Positions 4,168 through 55,765 are shown, counted from the first letter of the stretch. The stretch is DNA of 64,000 bases from an uncultured Candidatus Saccharibacteria bacterium (GCA_964434255.1 CAYSUL010000001.1:27720-91719), one strand, 5' to 3'. The notes: a model not told the origin generated them from the sequence alone. Numbers and translations: made by a program.

Positions 4168-5094
4168 ATGCACGATTTGATAATCATCGGAGGCGGGCCA
4201 GCTGGTATCGCCGCAGGGGTATACGCCGCAAGGAAGCGTTTGAAGTCCGTTCTGATCGCAGAGGAGATAGGTGGTCAGTCCACGGTCTCCGAGGGCGTCG
4301 AGAACTGGATAGGGACGGTGAAGATAGCGGGCCCCGATATGGCGAAGTCGTTCCGCGAGCACCTCGATGCGTATAAGGGAGATATCGTAGAAGTCATCGA
4401 AGGCGACCGAGTCGAGAAGCTCGAGAAGGCTGAGGGCGGGTTCATGGTCGCTACGCGCGATGGCAAGTCATTCACGGGACGCACGGTCCTCATCGCGTCG
4501 GGCGCTGGCCGCAAGAAGCTCCATGTCCCAGGAGCCGAGGCGTTCGAGAACAAGGGTGTCACGTACTGCGCCTCCTGCGATGGCCCTCTCTTCGCAGGAC
4601 AGGACGTAGCGGTGGTGGGCGGCGGCAACGCAGGCTTCGAGACTGCCGCGCAGCTCCTCGCGTACTGCAAATCGGTCACGCTCATCCATCGCCGCGATTC
4701 CTTCAAGGCGGACGCCATAACCGTCGAGAAGGTGCTCGCCCACCCGAACATGACCGCGCTCATGGATACCGAGCCGGTTGAAGTGAAGGGCGAGAAGTTC
4801 GTATCCGGGCTCGTGGTTAAGAATGTAAAGACGAGCGAAGTCGCCGAGCTTCCGGTCACCGGCGTGTTCGCTGAGATAGGGGTAATCCCTAATACCGACT
4901 ACGCCAAGGGCGTCGTCGAGCTCGATGAAGTAGGTCGTGTGGTTACGAACCAACGCAACCAGACGACGAGCGTTGAGGGCATTTGGGCCGCGGGCGACGC
5001 GACCGATGAGCTCTATCACCAAAACAACATAGCGGCGGGAGACGCGGTGAAGGCGCTCGAGGATATATACCAGTGGGTGATGCGGAATAAATAG
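4168..5094 (+). CDS. trxB: thioredoxin-disulfide reductase
   Basis: Rossmann motif IIIGGGPAGIAAG and redox-active CASCDG. Second NAD(P) site VVGGGNAG. Start chosen at MHDLIIIGGG. Confidence 0.85.
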   Translation: MHDLIIIGGGPAGIAAGVYAARKRLKSVLIAEEIGGQSTVSEGVENWIGTVKIAGPDMAKSFREHLDAYKGDIVEVIEGDRVEKLEKAEGGFMVATRDGKSFTGRTVLIASGAGRKKLHVPGAEAFENKGVTYCASCDGPLFAGQDVAVVGGGNAGFETAAQLLAYCKSVTLIHRRDSFKADAITVEKVLAHPNMTALMDTEPVEVKGEKFVSGLVVKNVKTSEVAELPVTGVFAEIGVIPNTDYAKGVVELDEVGRVVTNQRNQTTSVEGIWAAGDATDELYHQNNIAAGDAVKALEDIYQWVMRNK

Positions 5095-7023: not shown

Positions 7024-7238
7024 CATAGACAATTACTACGCCTCGACAGAACGATATCGTGCGAAGCAGAAAGGTCCCAAGGTGACTGCATAACACTTGA
7101 CAAAATATTTCACGTATAGTAGTCTACCTAGGTCAACGCAGCGCTGAGTAGTAGCAAGGATCGACTTTCGAATCCAGCCACCTGTCTTTGATGACTTACT
7201 CGCGTGCACTCTCTTACATCGCTATGCCAGAAGGAACC

Positions 7239-7442
7239 ATGGAAGAAGGAGTCATTGCCGGTCTTACCGACAAGGGCTTCGGCTTCATCAAGCGCGAAGG
7301 AGCGGAAAAGGATCTCTTTTTCCACTCCAATGAGCTCAAGAACGTAACGTTCGACGAGCTCCGCGAAGGTGACAAGCTATCGTTCGAACTCGCGGAAGGT
7401 CCGAAAGGACTTTACGCAGCGAACGTCAGCCGCGTCTCCTAA
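7239..7442 (+). CDS. cold-shock protein (CspA family)
   Basis: MEEGVIAGLTDKGFGFIKREG... carries RNP1-like KGFGFI. AAGGAA RBS at 7231-7236. Confidence 0.85.
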   Translation: MEEGVIAGLTDKGFGFIKREGAEKDLFFHSNELKNVTFDELREGDKLSFELAEGPKGLYAANVSRVS

Positions 7443-7447
7443 CCACC

Positions 7448-7471
7448 AGCGCCCCTTCGGGGGCGCTTTTG
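7448..7471 (+). terminator. intrinsic terminator agcgcccc-ttcg-ggggcgct-TTTT
   Basis: Perfect 8-bp GC stem, tetraloop, then a T-run, directly after the csp stop. Confidence 0.85.
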
Positions 7472-7490
7472 GTTCCGGCACCAAACGACT

Positions 7491-7970
7491 ATGGAAGCAA
7501 TCCGCGCTAAGACCGACATCCAAGCGCCTCTTTGGGAGGTGTATGAGATCATGTCCACGCTCGGCGGCCTCCGTAGCTGGCTCACGCGCGATGCACAGGG
7601 CGATCCTGCCAAGGGAGGCACGCTCACGCTCGGGTTCGGTCCCGAGCGGACGATGGTCATGCAGGTTGGTATCGTGCGCAAGAATGCGTACATCTCGTGG
7701 GTACTTACGGACTCTACCTTCCCCGCGTCCGGGTCGGGGCAGAAGACGAAGATAGTATTTCGCCTTTGCGAGGGCGAAGGACGCGGAACGAATGTCGACG
7801 TCGAGCATTCCGGCTGGACCGATACGAACGAGTTCTATCGAGTTAGCGGGTATCTCTGGGAGCAATCCCTCCTGAGCCTCAAGAAAGTGTGCGAGACCGG
7901 GCGCGGCGAACCTATTACGCCCGCAGTGCTCACCACGAAGAAGGCGACGGGATGGTTCCCGGTGATGTAG
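7491..7970 (+). CDS. SRPBCC-superfamily protein (polyketide-cyclase / AHSA1-like fold)
   Basis: 159 aa. Family assignment from overall pattern is tentative. Confidence 0.6.
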   Translation: MEAIRAKTDIQAPLWEVYEIMSTLGGLRSWLTRDAQGDPAKGGTLTLGFGPERTMVMQVGIVRKNAYISWVLTDSTFPASGSGQKTKIVFRLCEGEGRGTNVDVEHSGWTDTNEFYRVSGYLWEQSLLSLKKVCETGRGEPITPAVLTTKKATGWFPVM

Positions 7971-8019
7971 CAGTGCTGGTTGAATCCTGAACCCAAACAC
8001 GGTATTCTGCGGAAGTTCT

Positions 8020-39214: not shown

Positions 39215-39255
39215 GGGGGCATTATACGGAATTACTGAGGGAAGCGGAATCGCGG

Positions 39256-39274
39256 CCTGGGACGATGCTGGAAC
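39256..39274 (+). repeat. L-type repeat copy A (CCTGGGACGATGCTGGAAC)
   Basis: Member of a 5-copy family. Followed by a 33-nt leader almost identical to the one after copy C. Confidence 0.7.
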
Positions 39275-39322
39275 CCTTATGCAATCTATGTTAGGTTCTG
39301 TCTAGACTGAATGGAGGCGGAT

Positions 39323-39697
39323 ATGAATATCCCAATCGGTACTCGCCTGGGCGTGGCGCCCAGCCTTCTTGCCCAAATCCTTGCCGGCTTTACTGGTAAG
39401 CCCCCGCCGATTCGCACCGGCAGCGTGGTGTACCGGGAAATCGGCGAGCGGAGCAAGCTACCCCTGTACACCCTGGCGTTCGACGATGGTAGCACTGACT
39501 GCTATTTCGAATCTCAGATGATCATTCCCGAGACTTGCGTGTGCGGGACCCAAATGGATGAGGTCTGCTTCATCGACGGAACCGACAACTGTCTCGCCTG
39601 CCACGAGCTACATGTGATGGAACAGACTGGCGCAGGGGTTGTCTTTTCTCCAGCTCATAAACGTCGGGCATTCAATCTCGTCCGCCCCGAAAAGTGA
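39323..39697 (+). CDS. hypothetical zinc-ribbon protein (cargo of module A)
   Basis: GGAGG RBS 5 nt before the ATG. Cysteine pairs C-x-C...C-x2-C suggest a zinc ribbon. Confidence 0.55.
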   Translation: MNIPIGTRLGVAPSLLAQILAGFTGKPPPIRTGSVVYREIGERSKLPLYTLAFDDGSTDCYFESQMIIPETCVCGTQMDEVCFIDGTDNCLACHELHVMEQTGAGVVFSPAHKRRAFNLVRPEK

Positions 39698-39711
39698 GAC
39701 CACCCACAGAG

Positions 39712-39737
39712 CCACCCGACCCTGTCGGGTGGTTTTT
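39712..39737 (+). terminator. terminator ccacccgac-cct-gtcgggtgg-TTTTTGTTTT
   Basis: Perfect 9-bp stem plus a long T-run. Confidence 0.85.
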
Positions 39738-39746
39738 GTTTTACCA

Positions 39747-39771
39747 CTGGCAGACTAGGCCTCGAATCTAC
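39747..39771 (+). repeat. R-type repeat copy 1 (CTGGCAGACTAGGCCTCGAATCTAC)
   Basis: tRNA-3'-end-like. Overlaps the stop codon of the convergent HAD gene. Confidence 0.7.
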
Positions 39772-44039: not shown

Positions 44040-44546
44040 CTAGATATATCGCTGGAGTGAACGGGCGAGCTCGTTCGTGCGAGTTCGCCTCTTGGTCTGC
44101 GCCGGTTGATACGCCACGCGAGCGTGCTCCAGGCAGTACGGCCCATCGTCCTGCCGCCTTCCGCAGAAAGTGAAGCCGTCGGTGAATGGGTCGCCGATAG
44201 GCCATTTGCACATGTGAGCGTCGAGCGTGAGGATGGTCGCCGTGCCCGGAGCTTCCTCGACATACTGCACCGGCGCCGGGATGGGCGCGGTGGCGACAAT
44301 CGGAGCAGGCTCAGCGACACGCCGACGTGCGACAGACGCTGCAGCCGGACGGGGCGAACGCGGTGCCTTGAACACGGGCCGGGCCGGTTTCGATGGCGTC
44401 GCACGACCCGAAAGCCCGAGCCGGTGGACTTTGCCGATGACAGCGTTGCGCGTCACGCCGCCCAACTGTTTAGCTATCTGGTCTCCAGAGAGACCGTCCT
44501 GCCAGAGCTTCTTGAGACTCTCTACGCGTTCGTCGGTCCAACCCAT
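44040..44546 (-). CDS. gcrA: GcrA-family cell-cycle transcriptional regulator
   Basis: N-terminus MGWTDERVESLKKLWQDGLSGDQIAKQLGGVTRNAVIGKVHRLGLSGR matches the GcrA DNA-binding domain almost residue for residue. C-terminal CKWPIGDP...FTFCG motif. Confidence 0.8.
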   Translation of the reverse strand: MGWTDERVESLKKLWQDGLSGDQIAKQLGGVTRNAVIGKVHRLGLSGRATPSKPARPVFKAPRSPRPAAASVARRRVAEPAPIVATAPIPAPVQYVEEAPGTATILTLDAHMCKWPIGDPFTDGFTFCGRRQDDGPYCLEHARVAYQPAQTKRRTRTNELARSLQRYI

Positions 44547-46574: not shown

Positions 46575-46640
46575 GCCAATTCCTCGGGATTGGCTTTCGT
46601 ATTTCCATAAGAAGAAAGCCGCTCCAGGGAGCGGCTTTCT
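46575..46640 (+). terminator. two tandem hairpins (gccaattcc-tcg-gggattggc; agaaagccgctcc-aggga-gcggctttct)
   Basis: The second is a perfect 13-bp stem followed by TCTTG. Confidence 0.55.
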
Positions 46641-46785
46641 TCTTGCATCAGACGAATTGTTTACGGCTTAGTTGTAAAAATGCTACATCACAAGTGATGG
46701 AGGTAAGCCGTAAACAGCTCGTCTCATACGCACGATTACATAAAAGATATCATATATCCTTTTGCAAGTCAACAGCCCCCCGGTA

Positions 46786-46805
46786 GGCTCGGACGGTGTT
46801 GGAAC
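46786..46805 (+). repeat. L-type repeat copy E, degenerate solo copy (GGCTCGGACGGTGTTGGAAC)
   Basis: 15/19 identity to the L core. Precedes the candidate sRNA region. Confidence 0.45.
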
Positions 46806-47005
46806 CTTGATTTGTCTTAGAATCTCTATACTCTAACCTCGGGTGTTCGGGCAACACAATTGGCTAGCCCAAACGTGGCCATTAGTTCCTGCGCAGGCAG
46901 GAGCTGGTCTCAGAAGTAGCGATTAGCTACCACAAGGTGACGAACTCAATACCTGAGAAACGCTGACAGAGATCATTCCTCGACTTTTGGTGCTCGAACA
47001 CTTCC

Positions 47006-47032
47006 AGACCACTTCATGTGGTCTTTCTTTTT
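47006..47032 (+). terminator. terminator agaccac-ttcat-gtggtct-TTCTTTTTG
   Basis: Perfect 7-bp stem plus a T-run, 13 nt before repeat L-B. Confidence 0.8.
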
Positions 47033-47044
47033 GCGTACTAAAGT

Positions 47045-47073
47045 CTGCTGGGGGTCTGGGACGATGTTGGAAC
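47045..47073 (+). repeat. L-type repeat copy B (CTGCTGGGGGTCTGGGACGATGTTGGAAC)
   Basis: Core sits inside a GGGGTC...GACCCC hairpin (47051-47090). Confidence 0.7.
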
Positions 47074-47102
47074 TTCACTAATACGACCCCATGACCCGAT
47101 AG

Positions 47103-47130
47103 TTGATAAATATAGACATTTGTGTTATAA
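47103..47130 (+). promoter_or_regulatory. AT-rich promoter TTGATA-N16-TTATAA for the module B gene
   Basis: -35 at 47103-47108, -10 at 47125-47130. AGGAG RBS at 47152-47156, 7 nt before the ATG. Confidence 0.45.
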
Positions 47131-47163
47131 AGACAAAAGTGATGCATCGCTAGGAGACGTCTA

Positions 47164-47571
47164 ATGGAAGAGGTTCCCTCTCGCTCTTTTCTGGTCTTCA
47201 GGACCTTTCCTGACACCTGGGAATTGCCGGGTGAATACAGCAATGTACTTGAGAAGCATCTTTGTTCTATCCCAACGGAACTAATACTTCCGTGGCCGGT
47301 CAACATTTGCCCCAGAAATATTGGGGATGAGATCTGCTTCTCGAGCATGTTGACCCCGTATGCCGACTTCGTGGTGGAGAAGTTTGAGTACATCTACAGT
47401 CGCAAGAAAGGGGTTACTCAGTGGGTTCGTTTAAGACCTACTGAGGACGGCATGGACTTTAACCTCAACACGCTGCTTCACGCAGCCGATGAGGGGTTCC
47501 TGTTCGAATCTGAAGTCCCAATTTCACGAGTGTTGTACGACGCCGGCCTTCGACACACGGCCGTCGGATGA
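47164..47571 (+). CDS. hypothetical protein (cargo of module B), ~50% GC
   Basis: 135 aa. Strong RBS. Lower GC than host genes. No recognisable domain. Confidence 0.55.
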   Translation: MEEVPSRSFLVFRTFPDTWELPGEYSNVLEKHLCSIPTELILPWPVNICPRNIGDEICFSSMLTPYADFVVEKFEYIYSRKKGVTQWVRLRPTEDGMDFNLNTLLHAADEGFLFESEVPISRVLYDAGLRHTAVG

Positions 47572-47616
47572 CATTGCAGCAGCCCTCACACTTCGATGAT
47601 GTGGGGGCTTTAATAT

Positions 47617-47642
47617 TGCTGGCAGACTAGGGATCGAACCTA
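47617..47642 (+). repeat. R-type repeat copy 2 (TGCTGGCAGACTAGGGATCGAACCTA)
   Basis: tRNA-3'-end-like. Its CTA is the stop codon of the convergent metallopeptidase gene. Confidence 0.7.
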
Positions 47643-48043
47643 TTTGTCCCCTCCTCCTCCCGACCCTGCACATGCGGCTCATCCATGCCGAAATAGTGGC
47701 CGAGCTCATGCCAGATAGTTTCGCGTATCACGATGCGTATCGCATCCCGGAATTCCCTATCCATCTCTTCTGCCTCTTCGATGATAGGTAGCCGATAGAG
47801 CGTGATGGTGTCCGGCATGGTGCCACCAATGCCATACTCGCTGCCGCGCTCCGAGAGCGGAACGCCATGATACAGACCGAGCAGGGTCTCTTCGTGTTCG
47901 AGCCCCTCTTCCTTCCTAACTTCTTCGCTCAGCTCGTCCTCGATCAGAAGCGCGACGTTCTTCACCGACCGCTCGAATCGCTCCGGCACCTTCTTCCACT
48001 CCTCTGCGGCTATCGCCTCGAATTCACGTATATCCATGTCCAT
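47627..48043 (-). CDS. zincin-like metallopeptidase-family protein (DUF1025-like)
   Basis: 138 aa with HExxH motif WHELGHY. Confidence 0.75.
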   Translation of the reverse strand: MDMDIREFEAIAAEEWKKVPERFERSVKNVALLIEDELSEEVRKEEGLEHEETLLGLYHGVPLSERGSEYGIGGTMPDTITLYRLPIIEEAEEMDREFRDAIRIVIRETIWHELGHYFGMDEPHVQGREEEGTNRFDP

Positions 48044-54774: not shown

Positions 54775-54806
54775 CTGCTGCTGAGAGTCCGGGACGATGT
54801 TGGAAC
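54775..54806 (+). repeat. L-type repeat copy C (CTGCTGCTGAGAGTCCGGGACGATGTTGGAAC)
   Basis: Followed by a leader CTCTTATGCAATGCATGGTAGGTTCTGTCTAGAC, near-identical to the one after copy A. Confidence 0.7.
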
Positions 54807-54857
54807 TCTTATGCAATGCATGGTAGGTTCTGTCTAGACACATTCAGGAGAACGTTA

Positions 54858-55151
54858 ATGCCCTCAGGAAACCGAAAGCAGTGGTTGCTCGGGAGTGCTA
54901 CTCCCACATTCCCTGCACGCTTCTGCTCCACCTCTGAAGGAAGGCGGATGTTCCCGGACATTCTCCAAGATGCCTTCGGGCTCAAGAGCATCACAGGCTT
55001 TCATCGCTACGGACGAACGCTCGGTGCGATTATCCCCATCGAGGCCGTTCGGCTTCTCGCCGGCTATCCGGATGCGGTGGACGACGATACGAAGGTCCGC
55101 ATTCGGAACGCAGCCCTGAACCTCCTCGAGGGACAAGGTGATCTACGTTGA
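54858..55151 (+). CDS. hypothetical protein, possible Phd/YefM-like antitoxin fold (cargo of module C)
   Basis: AGGAGA RBS 6 nt upstream. KSITGFHRYGRTLGAIIPIEAVRLL resembles the antitoxin beta-strand region. No toxin partner seen. Confidence 0.45.
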   Translation: MPSGNRKQWLLGSATPTFPARFCSTSEGRRMFPDILQDAFGLKSITGFHRYGRTLGAIIPIEAVRLLAGYPDAVDDDTKVRIRNAALNLLEGQGDLR

Positions 55152-55191
55152 TGGAAGAACCTCACACTCCGCGCCCTGAAAGCGCGGAGTT

Positions 55192-55221
55192 CTTGCTGAG
55201 GGTCTGGGACGATGTTGGAAC
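55192..55221 (+). repeat. L-type repeat copy D (CTTGCTGAGGGTCTGGGACGATGTTGGAAC)
   Basis: Starts 41 nt after the module C gene. Boundary of the AT-rich islet. Confidence 0.7.
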
Positions 55222-55223
55222 TC

Positions 55224-55706
55224 TTACACTCCGATTTGAGGAACCGCGCCCGCCATATACAGAAACATATAAATCAGGAGGACAATGAAAAAACCGATGG
55301 CAAGAAGTTTTCTATTCATTTCTTTACTTTGTACAAACCAGATATGCTTCCAAAATTTATCGTTAGCCCTTTTTGAGAGAAGAACTATCAATCCAAGCAC
55401 AATGGACAGAAACGCAACTACCGGAAGTATGGCTACCAATGCAAGACCCAAAAAACTCAGTGGAGGATAGTTACTTACAATCAGACCTGCACTCAAGAAC
55501 ATTACTCCAAGCAGAAGAGACCGTGCAGGATTTAGATAGCGATAATACCAATAATCTTTCCCGAAACTATCGTCACCTGATTCTCCCTCTTTAGCCGTTA
55601 AATCTGATGTCCACTCCTTATAGAATTTTCTTGAGAAAAACATTGCAAAGCCATAATAGATAGCAGCCACGCCAGTTGCAATTAAGAAGAGTGGAAACCA
55701 GGTCAT
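55224..55706 (-). CDS. hypothetical polytopic membrane protein in ~40% GC islet
   Basis: 160 aa, about four TM helices. The last 8 codons read into the sequence just after repeat L-D. Confidence 0.5.
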   Translation of the reverse strand: MTWFPLFLIATGVAAIYYGFAMFFSRKFYKEWTSDLTAKEGESGDDSFGKDYWYYRYLNPARSLLLGVMFLSAGLIVSNYPPLSFLGLALVAILPVVAFLSIVLGLIVLLSKRANDKFWKHIWFVQSKEMNRKLLAIGFFIVLLIYMFLYMAGAVPQIGV

Positions 55707-55739
55707 ATAAGAAGTATATCGCCTGCAGGATGAGTCCGT

Positions 55740-55765
55740 CCTGGGAGACTAGGTATCGAACCTAC
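55740..55765 (+). repeat. R-type repeat copy 3 (CCTGGGAGACTAGGTATCGAACCTAC)
   Basis: tRNA-3'-end-like hairpin taggt-atcga-accta. Its CTA is the stop codon of mltG. Confidence 0.7.

Follow-up and report, generated by a model that had tools for sequence, protein, structure and literature searches.

A 571-bp single-gene cassette of a Saccharibacteria bacterium, gained and lost at a 26-base copy of the tRNA-Gln end

The genomes of CPR bacteria (Patescibacteria) measure roughly 0.5–1 Mb. To our knowledge, few mobile elements have been recognised in these organisms, and the gain and loss of their accessory genes are poorly understood. Among the systems described in other bacteria, the pdif modules of Acinetobacter plasmids and IMEX are small modules without a recombinase, which are moved by the housekeeping Xer proteins encoded elsewhere. 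Tycheposons of Prochlorococcus are integrative elements that accrete at tRNA 3' ends (bioRxiv 10.1101/2020.12.28.424599). The CIMEs of streptococci are flanked by att sites and have neither recombination nor transfer genes (PMC5704250; ICEberg 2.0, PMC6323972).

Module B, from an uncultured Saccharibacteria bacterium, is a 571-bp single-gene cassette that is variably present at a 26-base site, itself a copy of the tRNA-Gln end. Like pdif modules and IMEX, the cassettes of the family to which it belongs are small, have predicted promoters of their own and short conserved bounding sites, and carry no recombinase. They recall tycheposons in that some of the arrays end in a tRNA gene and partial tRNA copies flank the elements, and share with CIMEs the att-like sites on either side of units that lack recombination and transfer genes. 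The tRNA-Gln-derived family of cassette arrays spans the CPR and appears to be undescribed; no description of such arrays in CPR was found in the searchable literature, which omits most subscription journals.

Module B and its mobility

In the window (the whole stretch of DNA that was analysed, 64 kb), the cassette starts with its own, attP-like site, L-B (TGCTGGGGGTCTGGGACGATGTTGGAAC..., 47046–47078, plus strand), where the original prediction had placed an L repeat. The 16-nt L core, GGGACGATGTTGGAAC, lies at 47058–47073 in L-B and is found five times in the window, always on the plus strand (39259, 46790, 47058, 54791 and 55206), against a chance expectation of 0.44. On the other side of the cassette is R-B, an attB-like platform of 26 nt on the plus strand (TGCTGG CAGACTAGGGATCGAACCTA, 47617–47642), which contains the R repeat CTGGCAGACTAGGGATCGAACCTA at 47619–47642. 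This repeat (CTGGSAGACTAGGNNTCGAAYCTA) has three plus-strand copies in the window (39747, 47619 and 55741), with none expected by chance. The cassette is bounded by a 6-bp direct repeat on the plus strand, TGCTGG, the proposed crossover region, the left copy of which occupies 47046–47051 and the right copy 47617–47622, at the start of R-B.

Between the two sites, all on the plus strand, are a promoter-like site (47103–47131; TTGATA, 17 nt, (TGT)TATAAA), the predicted AGGAG RBS (47152–47156) at a spacing of 7 nt from the ATG at 47164, the cargo ORF of 135 aa (47164–47571), which belongs to a small family of unknown function, and a terminator-like hairpin, AGCCCTCACA / TGTGGGGGCT, followed by TTAATAT and the end of the cassette (47581–47616). 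The promoter proposed in the original prediction, TTGATA (47103–47108)-N16-TTATAA, is present as sequence and can equally be read as TTGATA-N17-TATAAA with TGT in front, but it fails the strict consensus rule of the promoter scan, the −10 hexamer being off consensus at position 6 (or 2), and as a promoter the site is a plausible reading only. The 9-nt loop of the cassette-end hairpin exceeds the terminator limit of the scan tool. From these elements we infer promoter and terminator activity in cassette B. The stem GGGGTC (47051–47056) / GACCCC (47084–47089), in whose loop L had been said to sit, is likewise real sequence but incidental and not a feature of the family: the longest stem bracketing L at 82 L sites from many genomes followed the shuffled distribution (6 bp or more in 2 cases, 2.1 expected), and a hairpin around L was rejected as a functional feature. 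The convergent gene on the minus strand (47627–48043) is a core gene for a Zincin_1 metallopeptidase (PF06262, E 8e-22). Its last codons, AGG TTC GAT CCC TAG, lie inside R, which supplies four codons (RFDP) in addition to the predicted stop codon.

The composition of the cargo ORF differs from that of the core genes, as was expected from the estimate of about 50% against 60% GC. Its GC content was 51.1%, compared with 59.8 ± 2.7% in pieces of 405 nt taken from 33 core ORFs (z −3.2). Codon usage deviated as well (score z −2.4), only 2% of the core pieces lying lower. A word-indexed search with the 135-aa protein gave no match beyond itself. By exhaustive HMMER search, 35 homologous cluster representatives were detected (27–47% identity), which are 116–166 aa long except for one weak, partial match in a 315-aa protein. 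The motifs W.LP..Y, PT..YLPWP, AEEGFLFE and AGL are conserved in this family, and an AlphaFold model built from the homologue alignment reached a pLDDT of 95.4. The homology check suggested with the prediction yielded these relatives but no match in Pfam or PHROGs; Foldseek with the model gave none in PDB or BFVD, and the profile none among PDB sequences. The model indicates that the product is a real folded protein of unknown function. For two of the homologues the gene is not part of an L/R array, and in one of these cases a putative convergent tRNA gene is its neighbour.

Variant contigs were retrieved by exact look-up of the window proteins; they are short and come from the same groundwater site (Hainich aquifer). 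Two of them, L015 and L017, join window position 47051 straight to 47617 with a 6-nt overlap. The junction reads ...AAAGTC TGCTGG CAGACTAGGGATCGAACCTA... (in a longer reading, ...GCGTACTAAAGTC TGCTGG CAGACTAGGGATCGAACCTA TTTGTCCCC), and exactly 571 bp are absent. This makes cassette B an indel of precisely 571 bp, with TGCTGG at its boundaries. The two contigs are from independent assemblies, encode a Zincin protein identical to that of the window, and retain the noncoding cassette which lies upstream of module B. In two further contigs, L008 and L010, which represent other strains, cassette B was found at a second location, after the stop codon of a ychF-like gene. Here the homology to the window ends exactly at 47046 and 47642; L010 has non-window DNA on both sides of the cassette, and L008, which begins within the cassette, differs on the right. 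The cassette is identical in the two (529/529 nt), while their flanks are 95.7% identical. To the right lies the sequence for the C-terminal end of a YchF-type GTPase, recognised by eye (...DGDVMVFHHS*), where the terminal CTA of R again forms the TAG stop. In another contig (L009), a cassette other than that of the window lies upstream of L-B.

A related, syntenic MAG (GCA_040384045.1) showed what becomes of the same platform in a relative. Its core genes are 87–92% identical to those of the window at the nucleotide level and occur in the same order (DEAD helicase, DsbA, VTT, Zincin ... MsrA, PGA_cap). R is present after the Zincin gene, cassette B is absent, and the cargo consists of a response-regulator receiver gene and a gene for a 208-aa protein. 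Moreover, all Zincin homologues of at least 90% identity end in TN(R/K)FD(P/I/T), the tail encoded by R. As this tail is found in all close homologues and the cargo differs in the relative, the platform is old and the cargo replaceable. The foreign origin that had been proposed for module B is borne out by the empty site, the second location and the replaced cargo, together with the deviating composition, and the presence/absence polymorphism that had been named as a check was observed (the two contigs without the cassette, the relative with other cargo). At arrays A and C, a search for polymorphism gave no arrangement other than that of the window.

One alternative is that the empty site and the other contexts are joins made in assembly, at short repeats of low-coverage metagenome contigs. 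The variant contigs have a coverage of 1.4x to 5x, and L and R are repeated in the genome, both of which speak for such an assembly artefact. It is nevertheless highly improbable: two independent assemblies have the empty junction, and another two, with SNP differences between their flanks, have the ychF context; at 6 to 26 nt, the shared repeat falls short of the usual final k-mer length; and an NCBI MAG, with a 640-kb contig, independently has other cargo at the same platform.

The L and R sites and their arrays

R is the reverse complement of the T-arm, 3' acceptor strand and discriminator base of tRNA-Gln. With ARAGORN, real tRNA-Gln genes in convergent orientation were found in L022, L026, L038, L056 and L123; in these genes R corresponds to the T-arm, the 3' acceptor strand and G73, sometimes extended by CCA. 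Array-terminating R sites lay within tRNA genes in 8 of 53 cases, all of them tRNA-Gln; the other 45 were orphan 26-nt copies, which end where the T-stem begins. All three R sites of the window are such orphan fragments, without a tRNA gene. The stop codon of a convergent ORF was located in or next to R at 19 of 41 R sites and was TAG in 17; in 13 of the 41, R's own terminal CTA forms the TAG. In the window as a whole, TAG is used by 18 of 43 genes, and the stop codons at the R sites are at 39768–39770, 47627–47629 and 55762–55764.

The left half of L copies the last ~16 nt of tRNA-Gln. A logo of 82 sites from CPR genomes (ttGcTGGc.GTcTGGGACGATGTTGGAACcTtTtT) showed a conserved block of ~35 nt on one side only, with nothing kept to the left of TGCTGG. 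L can be aligned with R over its full length; the two have TGCTGGCAG(T/A)CT(A)GGGA in common, followed by TCGAACC in R and by CGATGTTGGAACC in L. L is the same tRNA-Gln end in diverged form, with 6 nt inserted into the T-loop part. That L and R are variants of one tRNA-Gln-derived site, and that they belong to a CPR-wide family, are the two points which the original prediction did not contain. The same kind of T-loop insertion as between L and R was seen when the degenerate L' of the window (GGCTCGGACGGTGTTGGAACCTT, 46773–46810) was compared with L282 (~4980–5010), which has a shorter, R-like form (TGCCTCGAACCTT). A split tRNA or MITE-like inverted ends were rejected for L and R, which are direct repeats and align as variants of one site. 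A sigma-54 or ECF promoter was rejected for TGGAAC / GGAAC, as the spacing is unfit and L also precedes antisense ORFs. Rfam gave no match at L, at R or in the noncoding cassette.

The three arrays of the window follow one plan, (L, cargo, usually a terminator)n and then one R, which is at the stop of a convergent core gene. Array A (39247–39770, plus strand) has one cassette, composed of L-A, a conserved leader, a Cys-rich ORF of 124/128 aa and a terminator; L-A and R-A are both diverged, and R-A directly borders the stop of a HAD hydrolase gene that runs convergently. Array B (46787–47642, plus strand) consists of a degenerate L' unit followed by module B. The upstream unit (46787–47045, plus strand) has the L' core at 46790–46805, ~230 nt without an ORF, and a terminator at 47006–47024. 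Between 46806 and 47035, its plus strand contains no ORF of 36 aa or more and folds better than shuffled sequences (z −2.6); it may be a noncoding-RNA cassette or a decayed gene. Array C (54779–55764, plus strand) comprises L-C1, the leader, a 97-aa ORF and a terminator, then L-C2, a 160-aa membrane ORF on the minus strand, and R-C. The antisense membrane ORF has 40% GC (z −7.2), and R-C adjoins the stop codon of MltG (YceG). In L079 and L095, R is likewise at the MltG stop, with other cassettes.

The window arrays are almost evenly spaced, with L sites 7.7–7.8 kb and R sites 7.9–8.1 kb apart; this is probably a coincidence, since the core genes lying between them include TypA and a DEAD-box helicase. 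A conserved noncoding element was also found at 46612–46772, between an 81-aa ORF and L'. Its identity to the related genome L282 is 96.9%, compared with just 87–92% for the flanking genes. Its minus strand carries a promoter-like site (TTGACT-17-TATCTT, with TG) followed by a long hairpin and a terminator (fold z −8.8), and Rfam gave weak sub-threshold matches only; the element is a candidate small RNA. A 168-aa protein encoded at 44040–44546 (minus strand) had a precomputed match to GcrA (PF07750). GcrA is a cell-cycle regulator of Alphaproteobacteria, and the match is unexpected in a CPR genome.

A scan for the L 16-mer in one genome per species gave 119 loci. Lone 16-mer matches occur in many phyla at what is estimated to be the chance level. 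When an array was defined as at least two L within 1.5 kb, 24 of 39 CPR-labelled loci had one, compared with none of 76 loci from other phyla; the arrays are restricted to the Patescibacteria (CPR) lineage. An exact 24-mer of L was found at 80 metagenome loci (aquifers, lakes, sediments and mats), and single large metagenome contigs bear several arrays. All arrays examined have the order (L-cargo)n and then one R on the same strand, with up to 7 or 8 copies of L. In L123, where the array is anchored at tRNA-Gln, a reverse transcriptase gene (7093–7998; PF00078, E 5e-26) lies just past the far end of the array, and may belong to a DGR or retron unrelated to it.

A phage origin of the arrays was rejected, as a scan of IMG/VR detected no extended L site. 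All but one family of the IMG/VR matches look like chance. The remaining family is a coding sequence for a C5-methyltransferase, in which 33 viral contigs (L150–L199; e.g. L171, 6516–7275) have GTCTGGGACGATGTTGGAACCTT, with 23 nt identical to the L core. This sequence lies inside the ORF of the C5 DNA methyltransferase (...LDQAVVWDDVGTFDGRPW..., from motif I to the PCQ motif). Such a 23-nt match has a chance probability of roughly 1 in 100 to 1 in 1000, and may be either accidental or a true relationship.

About 270 cassettes were surveyed, with median lengths of 565 and 485 bp in two sets. In the genome set, 78 of 84 cargo proteins were singletons, and cassettes common to several species representatives were essentially absent. 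Pfam domains in the cargo included histidine phosphatase, SAM methyltransferases, GNAT, NUDIX, HAD, DAG kinase, GH113, DnaJ, PspC, NYN and CYTH, with small single-domain enzymes among them. Relative to L, 52 of 84 cargo ORFs were antisense and 32 sense. No recombinase was detected among the ~270 cassettes with Xer and resolvase queries or with Pfam on selected ORFs. Large cassettes were considered as possible carriers of one, and this was rejected because Pfam gave GH113, DKNYY, Cache, DnaJ and similar domains.

In a subset of the cassettes, A and C1 included, L is followed by a leader of ~30 nt and then by unrelated ORFs. The leader (TATGCAATCTATGTTAGGTTCTGTCTAGA) is located at 39278–39306 and 54810–54838 in the window, was also found in L038, L044, L051, L079 and L095, and is conserved between cassettes of Saccharibacteria and Paceibacteria. 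Its sequence suggests that TTGGAA of L forms a −35 element, to which the leader would add an extended −10 element. The leader may be a portable promoter with a 5' UTR, or an accessory recombination sequence.

These promoter-like features bear on one alternative, in which L and R would be shared regulatory or homology blocks, cassettes being swapped in a RecA-dependent manner after DNA uptake and lost by slippage between short repeats, comparable to the minimal mobile elements of Neisseria. The right half of L (TTGGAA), which in the cassettes with the leader reads as −35/extended −10 before unrelated ORFs, would suit such blocks, as would the DNA uptake presumed for CPR bacteria. We consider this quite unlikely. 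L-B and R-B have just 6 bp in common at the deletion junction, and the ychF flanks are unrelated, with no common homology beyond L and R. Moreover, the antisense orientation of 52 of the 84 cargo ORFs means that L is not simply their promoter, and R is a tRNA fragment without promoter features.

Proposed recombination mechanism

The best explanation, to which we give a probability of about 0.7, is conservative site-specific recombination between the L-type site of a cassette and a chromosomal R-type site. Since no cassette encodes a recombinase, the enzyme must act in trans. A tyrosine recombinase would be the most likely class, because tRNA 3' ends are classical targets of such enzymes.

According to this model, module B would be the more recent of the two units in its array. 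The 571-bp cassette, as a circle or excised in some other form, would bring a single L-type site and one gene with its own promoter and terminator, and would recombine with the chromosomal R, the 26-nt tRNA-Gln 3' end fused to the Zincin_1 stop. Strand exchange would take place inside TGCTGG, the only segment common to both junctions of cassette B, which places the crossover, in tRNA orientation, at the extreme 3' end (CCAGCA). The expected product is flank-TGCTGG-[L arm, cargo]-TGCTGG-[R arm]-gene. R would be regenerated and could take the next cassette, with older cassettes being pushed away from it. In this reaction R would stay on the side of the tRNA or gene and L with the cassette, which would account for the many L and single R of every array. 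Excision would be the reverse reaction between the two directly repeated sites, and the circular junction is expected to have 47616 joined to 47052 (...TTAATAT-TGCTGG-GGGTCTGGGACG). The circular intermediate, the direction of the reaction and the enzyme class are what we infer here.

Several results count against this explanation. Apart from one xer locus, there is no recombinase linked to an array. A phmmer search with XerD detected no tyrosine recombinase in the window, one Xer-like gene in the 119 genome loci and two in the 80 metagenome loci. The Xer-like gene adjoins the first L in L091 (3476–5142) and L227 (4800–6471), and is near the array in L237. At this xer-array-xthA locus the array starts within ~30 nt of the xer stop, and the xer product, a tyrosine recombinase, is the only recombinase seen near any array. 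Since L091 and L227 represent one syntenic locus, to which L237 may also belong, the three are treated as a single observation. A linkage of Xer to the arrays was rejected on these grounds, there being three matches and one syntenic locus. Also against the explanation, neither a circular cassette nor a read across such a junction was seen, L has no dyad symmetry and is one-sided, unlike a simple core site of a tyrosine recombinase, and the position of orphan R exactly at the stops of unrelated genes is not accounted for.

One-sidedness is what would be expected if the cassettes were inserted as single strands or by a transposase, either an HUH enzyme (IS200/IS605-like or IS91-like) or an RNA-guided, IS110-like one. 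Insertion would then occur 3' of the target TGCTGG, and L would be a left end recognised on one strand. Conserved sequence on only one side of the junction would fit, as would the identity of the cassette's closing hexamer with the target hexamer and the hairpin at the end of many cassettes. Such insertion is unlikely, however: L has no conserved subterminal hairpin, the hairpins at cassette ends are absent where the ORF is antisense, and no transposase was detected in the ~270 cassettes or their flanks (Xer and resolvase queries, Pfam on selected ORFs). In addition, integrases typically target tRNA 3' ends, as is the case here.

A broader proposal, which we hold at even odds, is a so far undescribed, integron-like gene capture system throughout the CPR lineage, using promoter-bearing single-gene cassettes with an L site of ~35 nt and an unlinked enzyme, maybe the housekeeping Xer. 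The targets of the cassettes would be the tRNA-Gln 3' end or its 26-nt orphan copies at the stops of core genes. If true, the system would be one of the chief ways in which these tiny genomes sample accessory genes. The orphan copies also represent the spread of a tRNA-derived attachment site from tRNA genes to the stops of protein-coding genes. L and R offer a simple sequence handle with which to catalogue the flexible gene pool of the superphylum, and could provide a ready-made integration point for genetic tools in the few Saccharibacteria that can be cultivated. A conserved 35-nt site marking hundreds of unrelated and, as proposed, independently expressed single-gene cassettes would also imply a recombinase whose substrate is defined and can be tested.

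Comparison with known systems

The likeness to tycheposons extends to newcomers that would push older elements inward and to the accumulation of integrase-less remnants. Tycheposons are, however, of kilobase scale and possess their own tyrosine recombinase and replication genes (10.1101/2020.12.28.424599), whereas the CPR units measure 0.2–1 kb and none of ~270 has a recombinase. Furthermore, the distal repeat in CPR is the fixed, diverged L instead of a plain tRNA fragment, and most CPR platforms are orphan 26-nt tRNA fragments and not tRNA genes. Site-specific accretion with the enzyme supplied from elsewhere would be shared with CIMEs. CIMEs have a recognisable ICE or IME with the corresponding att sites, from which they derive and on which they depend. 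No helper element for the CPR cassettes was seen in any locus, and IMG/VR is without the extended L site. The CPR site, moreover, is conserved across the whole superphylum.

The platform directly after an xer gene (L091, L227) recalls pdif modules and IMEX. By inspection, L and R do not have the 28-bp dif layout (11-bp arm, 6-bp spacer, inverted 11-bp arm), and just ATGTT resembles a XerD arm, in a comparison that included no CPR dif site. L and R are also direct repeats, whereas pdif sites alternate in orientation. The same direct orientation distinguishes them from the terminal inverted repeats of MITEs and IS elements, and the flanking hexamer is a constant TGCTGG that is part of the site, not a variable duplication. 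The IS200/IS605 (HUH) family differs in that L has no conserved hairpin, and no autonomous copy was found with Xer and resolvase queries and Pfam on selected ORFs.

Integrons are similar in having arrays of mostly single-gene cassettes with diverse, largely unique cargo (GNAT, methyltransferase, NUDIX and many unknowns), one recombination site per cassette, insertion beside a fixed platform site that is regenerated, and a content that differs between close relatives, as it does in the CPR arrays. Several features set the CPR arrays apart. No intI adjoins the arrays: XerD phmmer detected no tyrosine recombinase in the window and, in the 119 genome and 80 metagenome loci, only the Xer-like genes of the one xer locus. 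L is an asymmetric site of ~35 nt derived from a tRNA end, whereas attC is a folded palindrome; attC is located at the 3' end of the cassette and L at the promoter-proximal end of sense cassettes. CPR cassettes have promoter-like sites and terminators of their own and occur in both orientations, in contrast to integron cassettes, which are promoterless, co-oriented and served by the platform promoter Pc. Moreover, a CPR genome has several arrays, all small, which are located at tRNA-Gln or where core genes end in their stop codons. By analogy, the CPR arrays resemble an integron in the way they would work, but differ from it in intI, in the palindromic attC and in the promoterless, co-oriented cassettes.
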